Source of the DNA: a phage | Sequence record: OZ346228.1 | Direction: 5' to 3' (one strand) | DNA length: 64,000 bases | In this document: positions 49,691 to 56,792 of the stretch, one piece after another | Layout: the number at the start of each line of letters is the position of its first letter | Position numbering within the stretch: the stretch's first letter is position 1 | The notes under the pieces: model-generated | Databases searched by the model: none | Told to the model about the DNA's origin: nothing | What the model saw: only the letters and a program-made list of their open reading frames with translations | Position numbers and translations under genes: made by a program

Positions 49691-49954
49691 TTAGAAACCC
49701 TCTAAAAAGCTCTTGTAGAAAATAATTTCAGTATCTACACCAGTCACGATCTTATCGTTCCTGATTTCATCTGTAAGGTAGGTGTCAAAACGCAGAACCT
49801 GTGTGGTGTTGTCACACATCCACTCAGCTGTGACCATTGCGAAAATCTTAGCATCTTCATTATCTGGTGTGAATGTTACCACCTCACCGCACTTAAACTT
49901 TTCGATAGGCTGAGTGTTAGCTTTCGGTTCTGCGATAGTGATTTTTGTGGTCAT
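49691..49954 (-). CDS. small paralog family member 3
   Basis: 87 aa; motif KCGEVVTF; tandem with members 1, 2 and 4. Confidence 0.5.
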   Translation of the reverse strand: MTTKITIAEPKANTQPIEKFKCGEVVTFTPDNEDAKIFAMVTAEWMCDNTTQVLRFDTYLTDEIRNDKIVTGVDTEIIFYKSFLEGF

Positions 49955-50217
49955 TATTCTCCTCCTTCTTTTGAATAGCTTGTCTCTCCAAGGATGGTAA
50001 TTTTGGTGTCAAGCTCTGTAACTTTCATGTTTGGCGGCAGATCGTACAACTCATTATTTTCTAAATCGAACCCCCACACACAATGTTCTCCTGTTTTGAC
50101 AATCATAACTATGTTTTGAATGCCGTCTCCGTCGCAACTTACCACAGTCCCACACGGAAAGCTGTCTGCACGCTTTTTGTTCTTCACCTTAGAATTGAAT
50201 ACAATGCTGGTAGCCAT
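49954..50217 (-). CDS. small paralog family member 2
   Basis: 87 aa; motif PCGTVVSC; stop/start overlap with neighbours. Confidence 0.5.
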   Translation of the reverse strand: MATSIVFNSKVKNKKRADSFPCGTVVSCDGDGIQNIVMIVKTGEHCVWGFDLENNELYDLPPNMKVTELDTKITILGETSYSKEGGE

Positions 50218-50480
50218 TATTGTTCCTCCACCATAACTTCGCCAATAATTTCTATGCAGGCATCCATTTCTGTAACAACCAAACTGTGAGGTAGTTCTAC
50301 AAACACCTTTCTGAACAGGTCAAATACCCCAACATATATGTTTGCAGGATGTGATTTTACAACAAGTGCTGTATTCACATCCCCAAGTTCATCAACAAAC
50401 ATCACCACAGTGCCTGGAGCTACTGAGGACAGATACTTCTTAGTTTTACGGTTTGATGCAAATTTTAACTCTGTTGCCAT
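50217..50480 (-). CDS. small paralog family member 1
   Basis: 87 aa; motif APGTVVMFVD; first of four tandem same-length genes directly downstream of the metallopeptidase-VWA gene. Confidence 0.5.
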   Translation of the reverse strand: MATELKFASNRKTKKYLSSVAPGTVVMFVDELGDVNTALVVKSHPANIYVGVFDLFRKVFVELPHSLVVTEMDACIEIIGEVMVEEQ

Positions 50481-50495
50481 AAATAACCTCCTCTC

Positions 50496-51977
50496 TTACT
50501 TAGCGTACTCGATTAATTCCACAGTTTTACCAAAGCTCGGGATATAATTTTTATTATACCCCTCAGTGAGGACCCATAGAGTATCGTACTTTTTCCACTT
50601 GTTGTCAACAACCTTTTGTTCAAAGTTATGCTCAAAGTATAGGTCGGTCAGGACGATGACATCTTTTGCATTAGGTATGTTGGCATCCAGATACTCGAAC
50701 ACGCAAGCAGCTGTTGTGCCCCATGTTGAGTGGACCTCATAGTTGATCATCTCGTCTATGTTGCCGCGAGTGTATACTTTAACCTCTCCAACCTCAGTTG
50801 ACCAACAGAACATTGTAACCTTAAACTCTTTATACAGATTGCACAATCCGGTGATTTCATTGAACATTTTCTTTAAAGTTCTTTGAGAGATCGAGCCAGA
50901 AACGTCTAAAGCCACCACAATATCTATAGTGTTTTCCGGATTACGACCAGGAACAATAACGTGCTGGTTCTTGTTTATAGCCCCAACTTTTCGCATTGTG
51001 CTGGTCAAAGACCCAGATCGGCGACCAGGTTTTCTGTAGGTCAGTTCGGCCTTTCTTTTAGACAACATACGTTGCTTAATGATGTCTATATAGTTGATTA
51101 CAGGCTTACCTCTGTTCTTGACAAACTCACGCACCGCCTCAGGGCAACGGCCTCCGGACGCTTGCATTGCTGCCTCCAGCATATCACCAGAGTCCTGCAT
51201 GGCCTGATCTTTATCAGATTGGCTGATTACAGGTTGTGGCTGATCATACCCCATAGCCTTTCCAAGATTATCACTGGTGCCACCGTTCCCACTCATGTGA
51301 TCATCGGTTTGTCGCTTATCACTTTGAGAGTTCTCACCTTTACCGTTCTTACTTTTACCGTTATTCTGATCTCTTTGCTTATCAAGAACTGCATAAACGT
51401 TCTCAGCAATCCATCCATGAAACTTCATGTCGCAGTAGCAGCTGGCTAAGAAGCCAAAAGGCTTACCTTTCATGAACGTAGTGCTTTTCCCCTTCGGGAA
51501 GAAAACACAAGGGGGTTTGCTAAAGTCAACCACAAGGCCTGTGTTGATAACGTGATCACAAGCAATATTGAACAGTTCCGGCTCAAAGCTTTTACCACGG
51601 ACTAGGTGATCACAGATAATATGCCCCACCTCATGTGACAGAAGGAAGGCCACCTCTTTCACAGATTTTGGGGAATAGAAAACTTCAGCCATCTCAAACT
51701 GCTCGTCAGTTAGAGAAGCCTTAAGAATAGCCTTGCGCTCATCAGCCAATCCCATAATGAACTCAGGACTGTAATAGATGCGTTTATGGTCGGTTGCCAT
51801 GGTGGAGCACCATGTGTGGTTTTCTACGAACTGCAACCCTGACAGTAGTGTGCCATAAAACGGCAGCTTTTCAAGGAGATACATACGTGCAGCCTGCAAC
51901 ATTCTCAGGGCATCATCTTTCTGCGAGGCAATGATTTCTGAACTTCTGCTATCCATTAAAACTCCAGAAGGGGCCAT
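50496..51977 (-). CDS. putative zinc metallopeptidase domain + von Willebrand factor A (VWA) domain protein
   Basis: 493 aa; HExxH motif (HEVGHIICDH) in N-terminal half, Gly/Ser/Asp-rich linker, C-terminal MIDAS-like motif DIVVALDVSGS. Confidence 0.7.
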   Translation of the reverse strand: MAPSGVLMDSRSSEIIASQKDDALRMLQAARMYLLEKLPFYGTLLSGLQFVENHTWCSTMATDHKRIYYSPEFIMGLADERKAILKASLTDEQFEMAEVFYSPKSVKEVAFLLSHEVGHIICDHLVRGKSFEPELFNIACDHVINTGLVVDFSKPPCVFFPKGKSTTFMKGKPFGFLASCYCDMKFHGWIAENVYAVLDKQRDQNNGKSKNGKGENSQSDKRQTDDHMSGNGGTSDNLGKAMGYDQPQPVISQSDKDQAMQDSGDMLEAAMQASGGRCPEAVREFVKNRGKPVINYIDIIKQRMLSKRKAELTYRKPGRRSGSLTSTMRKVGAINKNQHVIVPGRNPENTIDIVVALDVSGSISQRTLKKMFNEITGLCNLYKEFKVTMFCWSTEVGEVKVYTRGNIDEMINYEVHSTWGTTAACVFEYLDANIPNAKDVIVLTDLYFEHNFEQKVVDNKWKKYDTLWVLTEGYNKNYIPSFGKTVELIEYAK

Positions 51978-51989
51978 CGGCCCCTGTCA

Positions 51990-53030
51990 TTATTTAACGT
52001 GTTTGAAAATACCTGCCAACTCGGTCATTGTCATGCGGGTGGTCTTCATAAGATCTGTCATAGCTTTCTCCATAATTGGAGATACTACCATAAAGTTTCC
52101 TTTAGTGAAACCTTTATTCCAGTCGGTCACCAACAGGGGTTTAAGTCCAGCTCCAAGACGTTCACCAGTTAAAGCACAGCATTTGCGAATATACGAACTC
52201 TTAAATTGGCTGAACGACAGATCAACTTTCATACCTACATCGTAGAACGTTTGACAATAGAAAGTGTAAGCTTTGGCAATCTCAACATCATCAGGTAGTG
52301 CAGGAACCTCTTCTGTAAGCTCCTCTTCGACCTCCTGAGTCTCTTTTTCCTCTTCATGCACCTGTTGCGTCATTTCTTCAATCTCTTCTGTGATAGGCTC
52401 GTTTACAATGTCGGAAATGTGCTTCTTGGGTGCACGATAAGTAACTTTAGACATCGGTAGCATATCTTCCTCCTCTTCTTCGTCAAAGAGTGCTAGTTTA
52501 TCCTCTTCCGTTCCATATTGCAAGATGAAATCTTCAAAAGTATAATCACCTTTCAATTTCTCCATACGCTCTTCGCTCAGGTGGAGCATCATCTGCTGGA
52601 CAATTTTTCGATCAGTTTCGTCTTTAATCAAGACTGCAGTCTTTTTATCTACCAGACAGTCCTTTAGAGAGTTGCATCTCAATCCCACCACACAACAGTT
52701 ATCAACCGCATAAGGACCTTCATCATCTATCCGCTCCAGAGATGGGTAGAAAGGATTCCCCAGCCCGTTTTCATCTGTGTGCATGTCAAAAGGTATAAGG
52801 GTATAGTCGCATACTCCATCTCCTAAAAGTTTTTTACCAAATAGGAGGTATTCTTCCCATGACAGGTCGAACTCTATATCTCGTTTCCGTGCGTTATTCT
52901 GTTTGCGTCTATATTTTTTGAGCAAGCGCTCTAACTCTTCTGGTGTATAATATTTTTCAAGATTCATGAGTCGTCTCTCGTGCTCTGTAAGTGAAGAAAT
53001 CGTATCAATTGTCTCAACAGATGTCAACAT
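51990..53030 (-). CDS. tandem His-Me-finger (HNH-like) endonuclease-domain protein
   Basis: ATG at 53030 (track starts at TTG 53033); first domain C.Y..PSLERIDDEGPYAVDNCCVVGLRCNSLK; degenerate second copy ALTGERL..LLVTDWNKGFTKGNFMVV; acidic linker between. Confidence 0.45.
   Translation of the reverse strand: MLTSVETIDTISSLTEHERRLMNLEKYYTPEELERLLKKYRRKQNNARKRDIEFDLSWEEYLLFGKKLLGDGVCDYTLIPFDMHTDENGLGNPFYPSLERIDDEGPYAVDNCCVVGLRCNSLKDCLVDKKTAVLIKDETDRKIVQQMMLHLSEERMEKLKGDYTFEDFILQYGTEEDKLALFDEEEEEDMLPMSKVTYRAPKKHISDIVNEPITEEIEEMTQQVHEEEKETQEVEEELTEEVPALPDDVEIAKAYTFYCQTFYDVGMKVDLSFSQFKSSYIRKCCALTGERLGAGLKPLLVTDWNKGFTKGNFMVVSPIMEKAMTDLMKTTRMTMTELAGIFKHVK
52431..52459. repeat. 29-bp inverted repeat, left copy (reverse complement of TACCGATGTCTAAAGTTACTTATCGTGCA)
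   Basis: Reverse complement of 52431..52459 matches 54293..54321 exactly; lies in linker of tandem-HNH-like gene. Confidence 0.85.
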
Positions 53031-53040
53031 CAAAAACGTG

Positions 53041-53069
53041 TTGACTTTACTCTAACTCCACAATATAGT
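53041..53069 (+). promoter_or_regulatory. sigma70-like promoter for + early operon
   Basis: TTGACT, 17-nt spacer, TATAGT; in divergent region between 53030 (-) and 53110 (+) gene starts. Confidence 0.5.
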
Positions 53070-53109
53070 GCACCCATTCGAAAGAAAACTAACATAGGAG
53101 CACTTACTT

Positions 53110-54009
53110 ATGGCAAATCTTAACAGTTTTAGTACGCGGTGGAAACAGGACATAACAACCAATCTTTCAGCTGGGGACATCCTTTCTGCAATTTACGAGG
53201 CTTTAGATGATAAAGCTACTTCAAAAGCGGTTTGTACCAACCCATTAATTCCTATAGTGATGAAGGTTATTGAGCGTAGATTGGTATCTGGGTCTGATAA
53301 GTGGACATATTTAGATAATGAAGGACACACCTATTCCAATGGGTATGTCGATATAAAAGTAGAATACGCGGTATCATACCGCCGGAGCGGTTCTGTAACT
53401 TTCAACTTCTCTGGAGGTTTTCGATCTCTGGCTACCTCACCTTTTGTTTCCTCAGAGGAGAAGTATGAGCTGCCATTTCTTTGGATGATGGCTAACGCGA
53501 CAGGAAAAACCCCCGTTAGCATCCGAGTAAAATACAACTACAACGGATCTAGTAAGATCTATGCCGAAAGTGTCTCAGCAAGTTTTTATTTTGTGATGGG
53601 GGATGGAATCCTCAAACATATAAAGATGTGCGATATGCATGATGTTATAAATGAAGTGACTGATAAGAATGTTCTAGTGAAAGACCTCAACAATTTTTAT
53701 ACACCTGGAGACTATTACGTCAGCCGTCCACTGTGCATCTTTAATGCCGCACACCCTCTAGGTGAGTATTTGATCGCCAATAGCGATATTGCCAATAACC
53801 GCTTCGAGGTAGCAAGAGTTCAGAATGAGGTATTGACATCTTGCAAGAGCGGTGATAAGTTTACCGAAGAAGAGATGGGTGTTTTAGAAATGATGGGATA
53901 TAAGTGTAGCCTTTGGGTAGATGAGGTGTTTAATGATTGCATCTATGGACAGGATATTTACCCATTAAAGAAGTATACTGATACAAGTTTAATTTATGCG
54001 AGGGTTTGA
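53110..54009 (+). CDS. hypothetical early protein
   Basis: 299 aa; first gene after divergent promoter TTGACT-17-TATAGT; RBS AGGAG. Confidence 0.45.
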   Translation: MANLNSFSTRWKQDITTNLSAGDILSAIYEALDDKATSKAVCTNPLIPIVMKVIERRLVSGSDKWTYLDNEGHTYSNGYVDIKVEYAVSYRRSGSVTFNFSGGFRSLATSPFVSSEEKYELPFLWMMANATGKTPVSIRVKYNYNGSSKIYAESVSASFYFVMGDGILKHIKMCDMHDVINEVTDKNVLVKDLNNFYTPGDYYVSRPLCIFNAAHPLGEYLIANSDIANNRFEVARVQNEVLTSCKSGDKFTEEEMGVLEMMGYKCSLWVDEVFNDCIYGQDIYPLKKYTDTSLIYARV

Positions 54010-54011
54010 CT

Positions 54012-54284
54012 ATGATGAAGGCATGTGGTAATGTATATTACGTCGGTGAACATGTTCAGGCAGACAGTGTGTGGAAATCTATTAAGTCCACCACTGACGA
54101 TGCCCTTCTGAGTGGACTATGTTTCCCCAATCCGGGAGACATCCTCCCTCATCCTGGAGATTTTGTTGTCAACAAGATGGACGGTTATACCGTGTGCCTG
54201 ATGGTTGAAAAAATCTTTTTAGACACTAGACACAATCACCGTCTTGTGTTAAAATTTCAAGAATGTAAAATGACAATTGCCTAA
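54012..54284 (+). CDS. small hypothetical protein
   Basis: ATG at 54012 (track start TTG 54006 overlaps upstream stop). Confidence 0.4.
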   Translation: MMKACGNVYYVGEHVQADSVWKSIKSTTDDALLSGLCFPNPGDILPHPGDFVVNKMDGYTVCLMVEKIFLDTRHNHRLVLKFQECKMTIA

Positions 54285-54292
54285 GGAGACCT

Positions 54293-54321
54293 TACCGATG
54301 TCTAAAGTTACTTATCGTGCA
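54293..54321. repeat. 29-bp inverted repeat, right copy (TACCGATGTCTAAAGTTACTTATCGTGCA)
   Basis: Contains ATG start of 54298 gene; exact inverted match to 52431..52459. Confidence 0.85.
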
Positions 54322-54654
54322 GCTATTTACTGCAATGAACACCCAATCAATAATGATGGTCACTGCCTTTTTAAAGAAAATCAATTGGGCTGTATTGTCC
54401 TCCCTGATGAAGGGGAAGGTTATCTGATTGCATTGACAGGGTTTGAACCTGAGGCTCTGGAAGCCAATCTGGACTACCTGGTAGAAGAGGGTGCTGCAGA
54501 CCTGGTTGCCAATGGCCTCTCCATAAGCCTTGACGAAGTAGAGCGCTTCATGGGCAATTACCGTGTAGTGCGTGAGTTTACTATCGAGGTGGAAACTCCC
54601 GAGTGGAGTAGCCATGAAACTAATGCCGAAGAAAAAGAAGAGGAGGTAGAATAA
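54298..54654 (+). CDS. hypothetical acidic protein
   Basis: ATG 54298 after RBS AAGGAG; N-terminal codons MSKVTYRA lie inside the 29-bp inverted repeat. Confidence 0.45.
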   Translation: MSKVTYRAAIYCNEHPINNDGHCLFKENQLGCIVLPDEGEGYLIALTGFEPEALEANLDYLVEEGAADLVANGLSISLDEVERFMGNYRVVREFTIEVETPEWSSHETNAEEKEEEVE

Positions 54655-54911
54655 TGAAAGTGCAGATCTTGACTAATGCCGAGAAGATGTTTATTGAAGA
54701 TACACCTTTTGAAGCTGGTGAGCTACAGTTCGTTTATTTTGTTGACTTAGATAAGGTGTTTCCTGCACTGAATCTAGGTTTGGATGAAGTTCCTCATAAG
54801 GTTTTGTGCCAAGTTGTTCGTGCCTTAGCGGCAGAGGGGGAGTTCCACACCCTTCAAGATGTCCAGACCTACGGGTATCTTGAACTACAACGAGAAGAAG
54901 AGGTGGACTGA
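54654..54911 (+). CDS. small hypothetical protein
   Basis: 85 aa; start overlaps upstream stop. Confidence 0.4.
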   Translation: MKVQILTNAEKMFIEDTPFEAGELQFVYFVDLDKVFPALNLGLDEVPHKVLCQVVRALAAEGEFHTLQDVQTYGYLELQREEEVD

Positions 54912-54913
54912 TA

Positions 54914-55294
54914 ATGGCTCAGTGGAAGACGACAGTTGACCTTCATGATCAGTGGTTAGGACGCATCACTGAAGACGGGAAGCTAGTGGAGTGGGACAAT
55001 AAGCATGTTAGCGAGTTGGCAAGTATTGTGGCTGGCAAGTTACGCTCCAAGTTCCCTGAACAACTGGATCCTGATAGTTCAAAGTTCGATCCTGAGTTGG
55101 AGGATGTTGTATACTACTTCGATACCGTGGATGACTACGATGCGTGGTTTGCAGCACGGGAGCTTTACCCACAAGGCTCTGCTATGCGCCAGATGGAAGA
55201 AGATTATCCTCCGTGTGAGCAATTCAATAGTGCAATGACTTGCCTCTATGATTGGGCAGATAAGAACCTTGTCTGGATTCGGACTGCATTTTAG
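54914..55294 (+). CDS. hypothetical protein
   Basis: 126-aa ORF in tightly packed + operon. Confidence 0.4.
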   Translation: MAQWKTTVDLHDQWLGRITEDGKLVEWDNKHVSELASIVAGKLRSKFPEQLDPDSSKFDPELEDVVYYFDTVDDYDAWFAARELYPQGSAMRQMEEDYPPCEQFNSAMTCLYDWADKNLVWIRTAF

Positions 55295-55338: not shown

Positions 55339-55608
55339 ATGTTATACCAGCAATATGAACTTCGTGCAGAAAAAGAGTTAAATTTTGACAAAGATATTCA
55401 CAGATATTATTATGGGAAAGTTAGAGGGCAAGCAAGAAAGTGTACTCCAACACTCTTTTATGCCAGCAGACGACTAGCGCCAGAAGAGGCAACAGCAGAA
55501 AGGGTTGCGTACAACTGGAGAGTCACGTATGATATTGACAGATTCGATGTGATATCTGTTTTGGAAAACTTTGAAAACACTTACACACAAGTAGAGGACT
55601 TTTACTAA
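55339..55608 (+). CDS. small hypothetical protein
   Basis: 89 aa; RBS AAGGAG. Confidence 0.4.
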   Translation: MLYQQYELRAEKELNFDKDIHRYYYGKVRGQARKCTPTLFYASRRLAPEEATAERVAYNWRVTYDIDRFDVISVLENFENTYTQVEDFY

Positions 55609-56792
55609 TGTCAAGAAACGTATTCGAAAGTGGTCAAATCACTGTCCGTGAGTTGCCAGCTATTATTCAGTTTGCCCAACGTCATAGCCGATCTGTCCTA
55701 ATTTTGGGACCAATGGGTGTGGGTAAAAGCCAGGTGATGAAGCAGATCGCTGATAATATGTTCGGTGAGCGAGATGACAACCTTGTTGACGTGCGACTGT
55801 CAGATAAAGATCCTGCCGACTTATCTGGGCTACCTATCCCTGTAGAAGCGGATGGAACTACACGTACAGTGTTTGCAATTCCAGAATTTTGGCCTGCGGA
55901 TCCTGACTGGAGCGGAATTATCTTTCTGGATGAGCTCACTCATGCAGATAACTACCTGCAAAAGGTTGCAATGCAAATTATGCTTGACCACAAGTGCGGC
56001 ACCTATGCATTCCCTAAGGGTTCTGTTTTTGTGGCTGCGGGTAACCGTTCTACAGATGGTGCGGTTCTTTCGGCGCTCGAAGCCCCTCTGGCTAACCGTT
56101 TTATCATTGTAGAGGTTACAAGCAATGCAGAGGTGTTTATTGAGGACTACGCATTCCTCAACGGGGTTCACTCCTCTGTAATTGGGTATCTGAAAAGAGT
56201 TCCATCAGCTATTGATAATTATGAGGCTATGGCTGAGATTAATTGTCCATCTTTTGCCACACCACGATCTTGGGTTGCTGCATCTGACATCTTGCACGAT
56301 TTTGACAGCGGTATTATTTCTGACGCTATGGCCCGTGTTCTTCTGCAAGGTGCTATTGGTCACACTGCAGCGGTAGAGATCTGGACATACCACACCAAGA
56401 AACGCAATTTACCGGAAATCGGTCGGATTATGGCAGGTGGCTGCAAAGAATACGTAGGCCCTAAGCAGCCAGACATTTTGTGGATTCTTGGATCTGAAGG
56501 TTGTATCGCTATTCGTAATATGATGGAAAATGCAAGTATCTCAGACGAAGATCTTGTCAGCTGTGTGGCAAACTTCCTCGATTTCCTTTGGGAAAACTTC
56601 AAGGACGAGAACCGAGATTTTGTATTCTCAGTCTTTATGGCGATGATGAAACCTAATGCCTTAGGAAATGCCTTGCTTATCGGTAAAGGGCGTGACAAGA
56701 TTGTTGCTCAGCTGATCAAAGCATACCCAAACCTGATGAAGATTGTAAAAGAGTTTGGTGAAGAGTTTAGCGCCATTTTGGCTAAAGCTTAA
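55608..56792 (+). CDS. MoxR-like AAA+ ATPase
   Basis: 394 aa; Walker A GPMGVGKS, Walker B IIFLDELTHAD, sensor-like AAGNRS; MoxR/CbbQ-type architecture. Confidence 0.7.
   Translation: MSRNVFESGQITVRELPAIIQFAQRHSRSVLILGPMGVGKSQVMKQIADNMFGERDDNLVDVRLSDKDPADLSGLPIPVEADGTTRTVFAIPEFWPADPDWSGIIFLDELTHADNYLQKVAMQIMLDHKCGTYAFPKGSVFVAAGNRSTDGAVLSALEAPLANRFIIVEVTSNAEVFIEDYAFLNGVHSSVIGYLKRVPSAIDNYEAMAEINCPSFATPRSWVAASDILHDFDSGIISDAMARVLLQGAIGHTAAVEIWTYHTKKRNLPEIGRIMAGGCKEYVGPKQPDILWILGSEGCIAIRNMMENASISDEDLVSCVANFLDFLWENFKDENRDFVFSVFMAMMKPNALGNALLIGKGRDKIVAQLIKAYPNLMKIVKEFGEEFSAILAKA

Follow-up and report, generated by a model that had tools for sequence, protein, structure and literature searches.

In this study, we report the analysis of a minus-strand gene located at positions 51,990 to 53,030 of a 64,000-nucleotide (nt) stretch of phage DNA (sequence record OZ346228.1; this whole stretch is referred to below as the window). 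An original prediction, made from the letters alone, had described its product as a tandem HNH-like protein with a degenerate second copy and with a 29-base-pair (bp) inverted repeat in the linker between the copies. The reading that we favour, to which we give a probability of about 0.6, is that the gene encodes an early protein of 325 amino acids (aa) of the T4 Srd superfamily, in which a live N-terminal module of the PacI nuclease type is joined through a linker to a dead C-terminal copy, and that the repeat is a scar. The gene belongs to a phage family that was already catalogued; the present analysis adds a PacI-type active site, a tandem architecture of one live and one dead copy, and the link with Srd. 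The architecture is well supported, and the activity and the target of the protein are predictions.

Fold and domain architecture

A word-indexed protein search recovered close relatives only, and an exhaustive profile search of 1.84 billion representatives reached further, with 760 relatives at E ≤ 1e-3. Many two-domain proteins of 230-330 aa were present among the best 150 of these 760. An alignment of 47 diverse homologues, with a mean column identity of 23%, was divided into its N-terminal and C-terminal halves, and the comparison of the two sub-alignments by hhalign gave a probability of 97.5% (E 7.8e-12, 69 columns). In addition, the hidden Markov model (HMM) of each half cross-matched the other half in many proteins, and the AlphaFold2 (AF2) model presented the same helix-helix-strand-strand-helix order in both of them. 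The tandem duplication put forward in the original prediction is therefore confirmed. The domain fusions of longer relatives were also scanned against Pfam, and nothing informative was found.

The AF2 model had a predicted local distance difference test (pLDDT) score of 87.4 for the whole protein and of 94.0 for the C-terminal domain. The N-terminal module consists of two helices, a beta hairpin (residues 75-79 and 91-95) and a further helix (96-107), and it is followed by a helical extension with helices at 117-129, 132-139, 144-151 and 154-162, which can be aligned to T4 Srd up to about residue 143. The block-mean pLDDT falls to about 46-65 across residues 161-220, and the acidic linker is probably disordered according to this model. 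It is also the most variable part of the family, in length as well as in sequence.

Both halves are His-Me finger (beta-beta-alpha-metal) modules, with a beta hairpin followed by the metal-finger alpha helix, and they are akin to the atypical, histidine-less PacI group. In a profile search of the whole PDB, PacI was the sole His-Me match, and a weak one (E 0.82). When the N-domain profile was aligned directly to PacI by hhalign, a probability of 93.2% was obtained (E 2.9e-7, 81 columns, PacI residues 36-120). The C-domain profile gave no match to PacI by sequence, and the relation between this domain and PacI is visible from structure only; the structural match of the full model may come from the C-terminal domain, and the N-terminal domain is tied to PacI by its sequence. 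Foldseek searches against viral models (BFVD) returned phage "anti-sigma factors", HNH proteins of Pandoravirus and Medusavirus, and the Srd proteins of phages Acj9 and 133. These viral matches fit the published PacI group of His-Me fingers, which is mostly viral (PMC5714182). It must be noted that the scan of each half against Pfam, proposed in the original prediction, returned no HNH model even at E ≤ 10, nor did the whole protein match any Pfam family at that threshold. NCBIfam likewise gave nothing relevant for the whole protein or its halves at permissive thresholds, and we found no match to PF01844, PF13392, PF02945 or related families and no CxxC...CxxC zinc site. Therefore, the assignment of the halves to the His-Me finger fold stands, while their expected match to canonical HNH profiles gives way to a relation with the PacI group.

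Homology to T4 Srd (its residues 6-135) covers the N-terminal domain and the beginning of the helical extension (hhalign probability 97.7%, E 1.5e-12, 124 columns; BLASTP E 3e-7), and the Srd motif CAYSGEPF...SLERFD..GY..GN...YN is the same as that of the N-terminal domain. The C-domain HMM also matches the N-terminal domain of Srd (8e-8; hhalign 94.8%, E 5e-8), within Srd residues 22-86 only. The original prediction misses this connection and, with it, a role in host mRNA decay through RNase E. Srd belongs to the small number of known binding partners of the RNase E catalytic half. It is tied here to a rare, histidine-less nuclease type; no paper linking Srd with PacI was found among the papers searched, in which the co-mentions were unrelated uses of the words.

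Proteins with a single module (about 105-160 aa) do genuinely occur, and their organisation is probably ancestral. Homologues carrying the two halves as separate genes, for which the original prediction had suggested a search, were not among the proteins recovered: the apparent cases were all artefacts, namely a gene truncated by the end of its contig (P0038) and a single gene whose frame is shifted by 1 nt in a run of ten A (P0039 and P0099). In a distant homologue from a Logan contig (SRR26434398; L010, positions 1340-1400), a 150-aa ORF (open reading frame) for the N-terminal half is split from a 127-aa ORF for the C-terminal half by one extra A in a run of ten. Deleting one A restores the consensus LKKKYIP, and the extra A could be a sequencing error or the product of a slippery homopolymer.

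The putative active site and its loss in the second copy

PacI is a known exception among His-Me nucleases: according to two reports, it lacks the catalytic histidine, uses a tyrosine of the loop instead, and has a single metal bound by an Asp and an Asn (PMC5714182, PMC4081073). Its Y100, which is the sole tyrosine of that loop, aligns with Y86 of the protein studied here, which thus carries in its omega loop a Tyr in place of His, as in the PacI group. Residues are numbered throughout from the ATG at 52967, which gives 325 aa; the numbers of the original prediction are higher by 22.

The conservation of these positions was examined in 167 N-terminal domains. Y86 and N90 were present in all of them, E or D at position 78 in 166, R79 in 164, N99 in 161 (with H in five more) and K102 in 143. 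The two putative metal ligands, E/D78 and N/H99, were therefore each found in 166 of the 167 domains. The position of the usual catalytic histidine is occupied by R79 in the first copy and by V, I or L in the second, and no conserved His was found anywhere in the family alignment. The cysteines that flank the site in PacI as zinc ligands (C63, C66, C109 and C112) are kept at two of four positions in this protein (C53 and C98) and at only one (C53) across the family. Consequently, the full HNH-like zinc-ribbon signature that had been read in the N-terminal half does not hold, given that there is no conserved histidine and that C53 is the sole family-invariant cysteine.

The second copy presents a different pattern. 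Across 138 C-terminal domains we found L, F, Y or W at position 279, V, I or L at 280, V, F, I or L at 287, mixed residues at 300, and L or M at 303, with only C264, D282 and N291 retained. The positions of the metal ligands are thus hydrophobic (279) and variable (300). Since the loss extends over all these domains, the live/dead asymmetry is ancient and family-wide, and the second copy is degenerate, as had been claimed. Conservation restricted to the first copy is the pattern that selection for catalysis in that copy would be expected to leave in the sequences, which falls short of proving activity.

Gene, inverted repeat and genomic context

Over bases 51500-55000, the window has 100% identity with Escherichia phage naswa (Vequintavirus murica, an rV5-like myovirus) and 88-99.8% identity with about 120 other deposited genomes. 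This region matches 16 MG0656xx records (e.g., MG065635.1 and MG065655.1) named "Campylobacter phage", with Campylobacter jejuni as host, and apart from them E. coli rV5-like phages only; C12 and C2 are among the best matches (98.5-99.6% identical), and the Campylobacter host labels of these records appear doubtful. The gene is naswa_85 in naswa and gp011 in Murica. By tblastn, it was detected in about 118 records at at least 80% identity, and identical or near-identical proteins have been deposited in more than 100 phage genomes. The coordinates of the features discussed are given in Table 1.

Table 1. Features of the gene and of its surroundings, in window coordinates
Feature	Position	Strand	Details
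Srd-like tandem-domain protein, coding sequence	51990..52967	-	325 aa plus stop; ORF
N-terminal PacI-like His-Me finger module	52638..52946	-	residues about 8-110; AF2 pLDDT >90; hhalign to PacI residues 32-123 and to T4 Srd
Putative active-site segment	52662..52736	-	E78-R79-x-D81...Y86...N90...N99..K102, compared with PacI D92-R93-x-D95...Y100...N104...N113..K116
Helical extension after the N-terminal domain	52479..52637	-	residues 111-163; AF2
Acidic linker	52302..52478	-	residues 164-222; low AF2 confidence
C-terminal degenerate copy of the module	51993..52301	-	residues 223-325; L279, V280, F287, E300 and M303 at the catalytic positions
Linker arm of the 29-bp repeat	52431..52459	-	encodes (L)PMSKVTYRA; clade-specific patch
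Partner arm of the repeat	54293..54321	+	positions -5 to +24 around the start codon of the gp008 homologue (naswa_88, MSKVTYRAAIYC...); ancestral copy
gp008 homologue	54298..54654	+	118 aa; PHROG 12908; function not assigned; first 8 codons are the source of the patch
Sigma-70-type promoter of the gene	52999..53027	-	TTGACA-17 nt-TG-TACGAT; inside the extended ORF of the original prediction; sequence scan
Divergent sigma-70-type promoter of the rightward operon that includes the gp008 homologue	53041..53069	+	TTGACT-17 nt-TATAGT; sequence scan
GC-rich hairpin	51969..51985	-	AGGGGCC-ATC-GGCCCCT; between the stop codon of the gene and the downstream DUF2201 gene; sequence scan

The frame on which the original prediction was based is real, as an uninterrupted ORF spans 51990..53033 on the minus strand and contains the motifs that had been quoted. 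Its N-terminal extension beyond 52967 is most likely not coding. The promoter of the gene lies inside this 66-nt extension; among four relatives, the promoter hexamers are kept, changes are found in the spacer and in the putative codons and are mostly non-synonymous, and FV3 and ECP32 have AGG in place of the ATG at 53030. Therefore, the first 22 codons of the longer ORF are most likely untranslated and the true start is most likely the ATG at 52967, which is the annotated start in naswa_85, Murica gp011, ECP32 and Gotham. The 34 nt from this ATG onward were identical in all four relatives compared. In addition, the protein is a full-length member of PHROG 3118 ("HNH endonuclease", E 8e-113), and the match begins at residue 25 of the 347-aa version.

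The labels given to this gene are in disagreement with each other. Most GenBank records have "anti-sigma factor" and RefSeq has "HNH endonuclease"; "anti-termination", "type II restriction endonuclease" (in one record of a metagenome-assembled genome, MAG) and "hypothetical" are also found in the source records. Weaker PHROG matches were obtained to 4592 ("decoy of host sigma70") and 1400 ("Srd anti-sigma factor", E 3e-10), whose labels derive from the T4 Srd annotation, as well as to the endonuclease PHROGs 3322 and 1035 ("endonuclease VII").

With respect to the inverted repeat, the two arms are exact over 29 bp, and none of 100 shuffled sequences had two matches at three mismatches or fewer. 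The original prediction had placed the repeat exactly in the linker. One arm does lie in the acidic linker, and its partner is 1.8 kb away, outside the gene and on the opposite strand, at the start of the gp008 homologue. The linker arm was found in 28 of about 120 vequintavirus records, all of them in the murica clade. The gp008 copy is the ancestral one, because it is exact in 31 records without the linker arm (nom and 30 more, including rV5) and near-exact in FV3, where two third-codon changes are the only differences. At the site where the murica clade has MLPMSKVTYRA, the linker of FV3, nom and an 89%-identical cluster (P0013) reads MSPMQDFKNFMA[ND]R[GA]; the murica version is four codons shorter. 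ACC[A/G]ATG and ATCGTGCAGC were already common to this older linker and the start of the gp008 gene. Such microhomologies may have primed an ectopic conversion or a template switch in which 13 nt took the place of the 25 nt between them, and in this way the first codons of the gp008 homologue would have been copied into the variable linker in the murica lineage.

We also considered that the repeat could be functional, either as a recombination site at the borders of an invertible 1.8-kb segment or as a shared translation-initiation or regulatory element from which a free C-terminal domain could also be initiated internally. Its perfection over 29 bp is far beyond chance, an identical sense sequence with an in-frame ATG is present in the two mRNAs, and GAGGAGGAAGAT is present upstream of internal ATGs. 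Against this, the linker arm is missing in most vequintaviruses, the two arms of the repeat have acquired different, non-matching changes in ECP32, and five members of the clade no longer have perfectly identical arms. A synthetic query for the inversion junction gave no record covering at least 80% of it among 108 matching phage genomes, and the annotation has no recombinase in the vicinity. The copied segment does not include the Shine-Dalgarno sequence of the gp008 homologue. Moreover, given that the two genes are divergently transcribed, both mRNAs contain the same sense sequence and cannot pair with each other. The 29-mer had no match in IMG/VR. A functional repeat is thus highly improbable, and what we observe is a recent, lineage-specific scar with no sign of function found. 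The conservation of linker and repeat, on which the original prediction had made its own reading depend, does not exist, as the linker is the most variable region and the arm is limited to the records indicated above. The repeat nevertheless illustrates cleanly, in a natural setting, a short ectopic conversion between genes that are transcribed divergently, and it cautions against inferring function from perfect repeats.

The gene is located directly behind its sigma-70-type promoter, and rIIA, a MoxR-type ATPase and a DUF2201 metallopeptidase/VWA gene belong to the same block. Both divergent promoters are independently annotated in phage Gotham, the leftward one by PhagePromoter. The palindrome GTCAACATCAAAAACGTGTTGAC, at 53023-53045 of the window, contains the -35 boxes of both of them, and therefore the two early transcription units have one symmetric control region in common. 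This locus at the divergent early promoter is fixed in every Vequintavirus and Seunavirus relative examined; Seunavirus SSE121 has the same gene arrangement at 39% protein identity. At the other end of the gene, the GC-rich hairpin falls within the 33 nt that separate the stop codon from the annotated start of the DUF2201 gene. The Murica annotation has a terminator at the same position, and the hairpin is possibly a terminator or an attenuator of read-through in the leftward operon.

Several observations were made on the neighbouring genes. The downstream gene (50496-51956, minus strand) carries a DUF2201_N metallopeptidase domain and a DUF2201 VWA domain according to Pfam (E 4e-28 and 6e-11, respectively), and it is labelled "HNH endonuclease" in RefSeq and PHROG 1314 and "putative anti-sigma factor" in naswa. 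The MoxR-type ATPase, which is the usual partner of DUF2201, is found across the divergent promoter at about 55339-56792 (plus strand), annotated as two coding sequences of 270 and 1185 nt. Downstream of the DUF2201 gene, naswa_81-83 (about 49691-50480, minus strand) are three consecutive genes of about 87 aa which resemble an array of tandem paralogues, two of the three having the common pVOG label VOG5597.

Proposed function and comparison with known systems

Under the reading that we favour, R79 stands in place of the usual catalytic histidine, and the loop tyrosine Y86, the acidic E78 and the helix asparagine N99 would form a PacI-like active site with one metal. The N-terminal domain would accordingly be a metal-dependent nuclease, or at least a phosphodiester-binding site, acting early on host nucleic acids. 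The dead C-terminal domain may substitute for the second subunit of a PacI-like dimer, or it may be a targeting or partner-binding module. A live/dead pseudo-dimer of this kind might work as an asymmetric, nickase-like enzyme, and the output could be a faster decay of host mRNA together with RNase E, as for Srd, or a direct attack on host nucleic acid. A broader proposal, which we put forward only tentatively and do not hold to be probable as a whole, is that the Srd-family proteins, T4 Srd included, are active tyrosine-type (PacI-like) His-Me nucleases whose own catalysis lies behind the shut-off of host RNA or DNA; the two-domain branch would then be a live/dead pseudo-dimer derived from the ancient tandem duplication and would nick or cut asymmetrically.

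Some points weigh against these proposals and must be considered. The zinc ligands of PacI are mostly lost, with T56 and G95 at the positions of its C66 and C109, which leaves room for another way of stabilising the fold or for a changed site. The near-invariant residues might be kept for binding instead of catalysis, and nuclease activity of the protein is itself a prediction. The predicted template modelling (pTM) score of the AF2 model, 0.56, leaves the mutual arrangement of the domains unsupported, and hence also the idea of a pseudo-dimer. In addition, T4 Srd does not have the C-terminal copy (hhalign of the C-terminal profile against Srd residues 126-248 gave a probability of 1%), and the transfer of function from Srd is a weak argument by analogy.

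Among the rival explanations, the protein could be a pure adaptor or regulator like T4 Srd, which would bind RNase E at its catalytic half, or some other protein of the host, and stimulate host mRNA decay without nuclease activity of its own, the PacI-like residues forming a binding surface. The homology of the N-terminal domain and the helical extension to Srd, the early-type promoter context and the degenerate state of the PacI structural zinc site all agree with it, as does the mode of action of Srd, which is reported in two papers that cite Qi et al. 2015 (PMC13232886, PMC7430671) to associate with the N-terminal, catalytic half of RNase E and to promote the degradation of host mRNA. What speaks for catalysis is that the PacI constellation (E/D, R, Y, N, N and K) is near-invariant in 167 domains at about 23% mean identity, as purifying selection on catalysis predicts, and that the second copy has lost precisely these residues in the same proteins; the C-terminal half of T4 Srd also differs. 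For these reasons we consider that an adaptor without catalysis is unlikely.

The labels of the databases suggest two other functions. The original prediction had mentioned homing, packaging or attack on host DNA as possible roles, and a nuclease of the HNH type, whether a site-specific mobile one (homing or free-standing) or one associated with packaging, is what the RefSeq label "HNH endonuclease" implies and would agree with the His-Me finger fold, with the PHROG 3118 label and with the "type II restriction endonuclease" of the MAG record. The same syntenic position in all relatives examined, which belong to two genera, and the presence of the gene in the roughly 118 records found by tblastn are unlike the sporadic distribution of homing genes among close relatives. 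The promoter-proximal early block with rIIA, MoxR and VWA genes and the lack of a canonical HNH Pfam match also argue against this possibility, and nothing links the gene to packaging. Both roles are therefore very unlikely. With regard to the anti-sigma factor or sigma-70 decoy of most GenBank records, its only basis is the annotation inherited from T4 Srd ("similarity with rpoD") and the labels of PHROGs 4592 and 1400; no membership in either class was found for this protein, and we regard such a function as hardly credible.

The gene is present in well over a hundred genomes of rV5-like coliphages that are candidates for therapy, in which it is labelled contradictorily. These labels can now be replaced by a concrete architecture and by an active site that can be tested at E78, R79, Y86 and N99. 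In comparison with PHROG 3118 and with the GenBank "anti-sigma factor" of rV5-like phages, the sequence is the same, but those labels conflict with one another and none of them covers the tandem live/dead architecture. Unlike the canonical HNH and endonuclease VII-type nucleases (PF01844, PF13392 and PF02945; T4 endonuclease VII, Hpy99I and GVE2 HNH), this protein lacks both a general-base histidine and a CxxC...CxxC zinc site, and it matches no model of Pfam or NCBIfam even at E ≤ 10. T4 Srd (NP_049634, "Srd anti-sigma factor") shares C-x-Y-[ST]-G, SLER[FI]D, GY, GN and the helix Asn, is likewise of the early host-takeover type and belongs to no Pfam family; it is 248 aa long and has R at the position of K102. 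Finally, PacI (PDB 3LDY/3M7K; group 20 of the His-Me fingers, PMC5714182) is a homodimer of 142 residues with two structural Cys4 zinc sites and an 8-bp DNA target, while in the protein studied here the zinc ligands are largely absent and, in place of the homodimer, the module is found in tandem within one chain, with an inactivated second copy and an acidic linker between the two copies.

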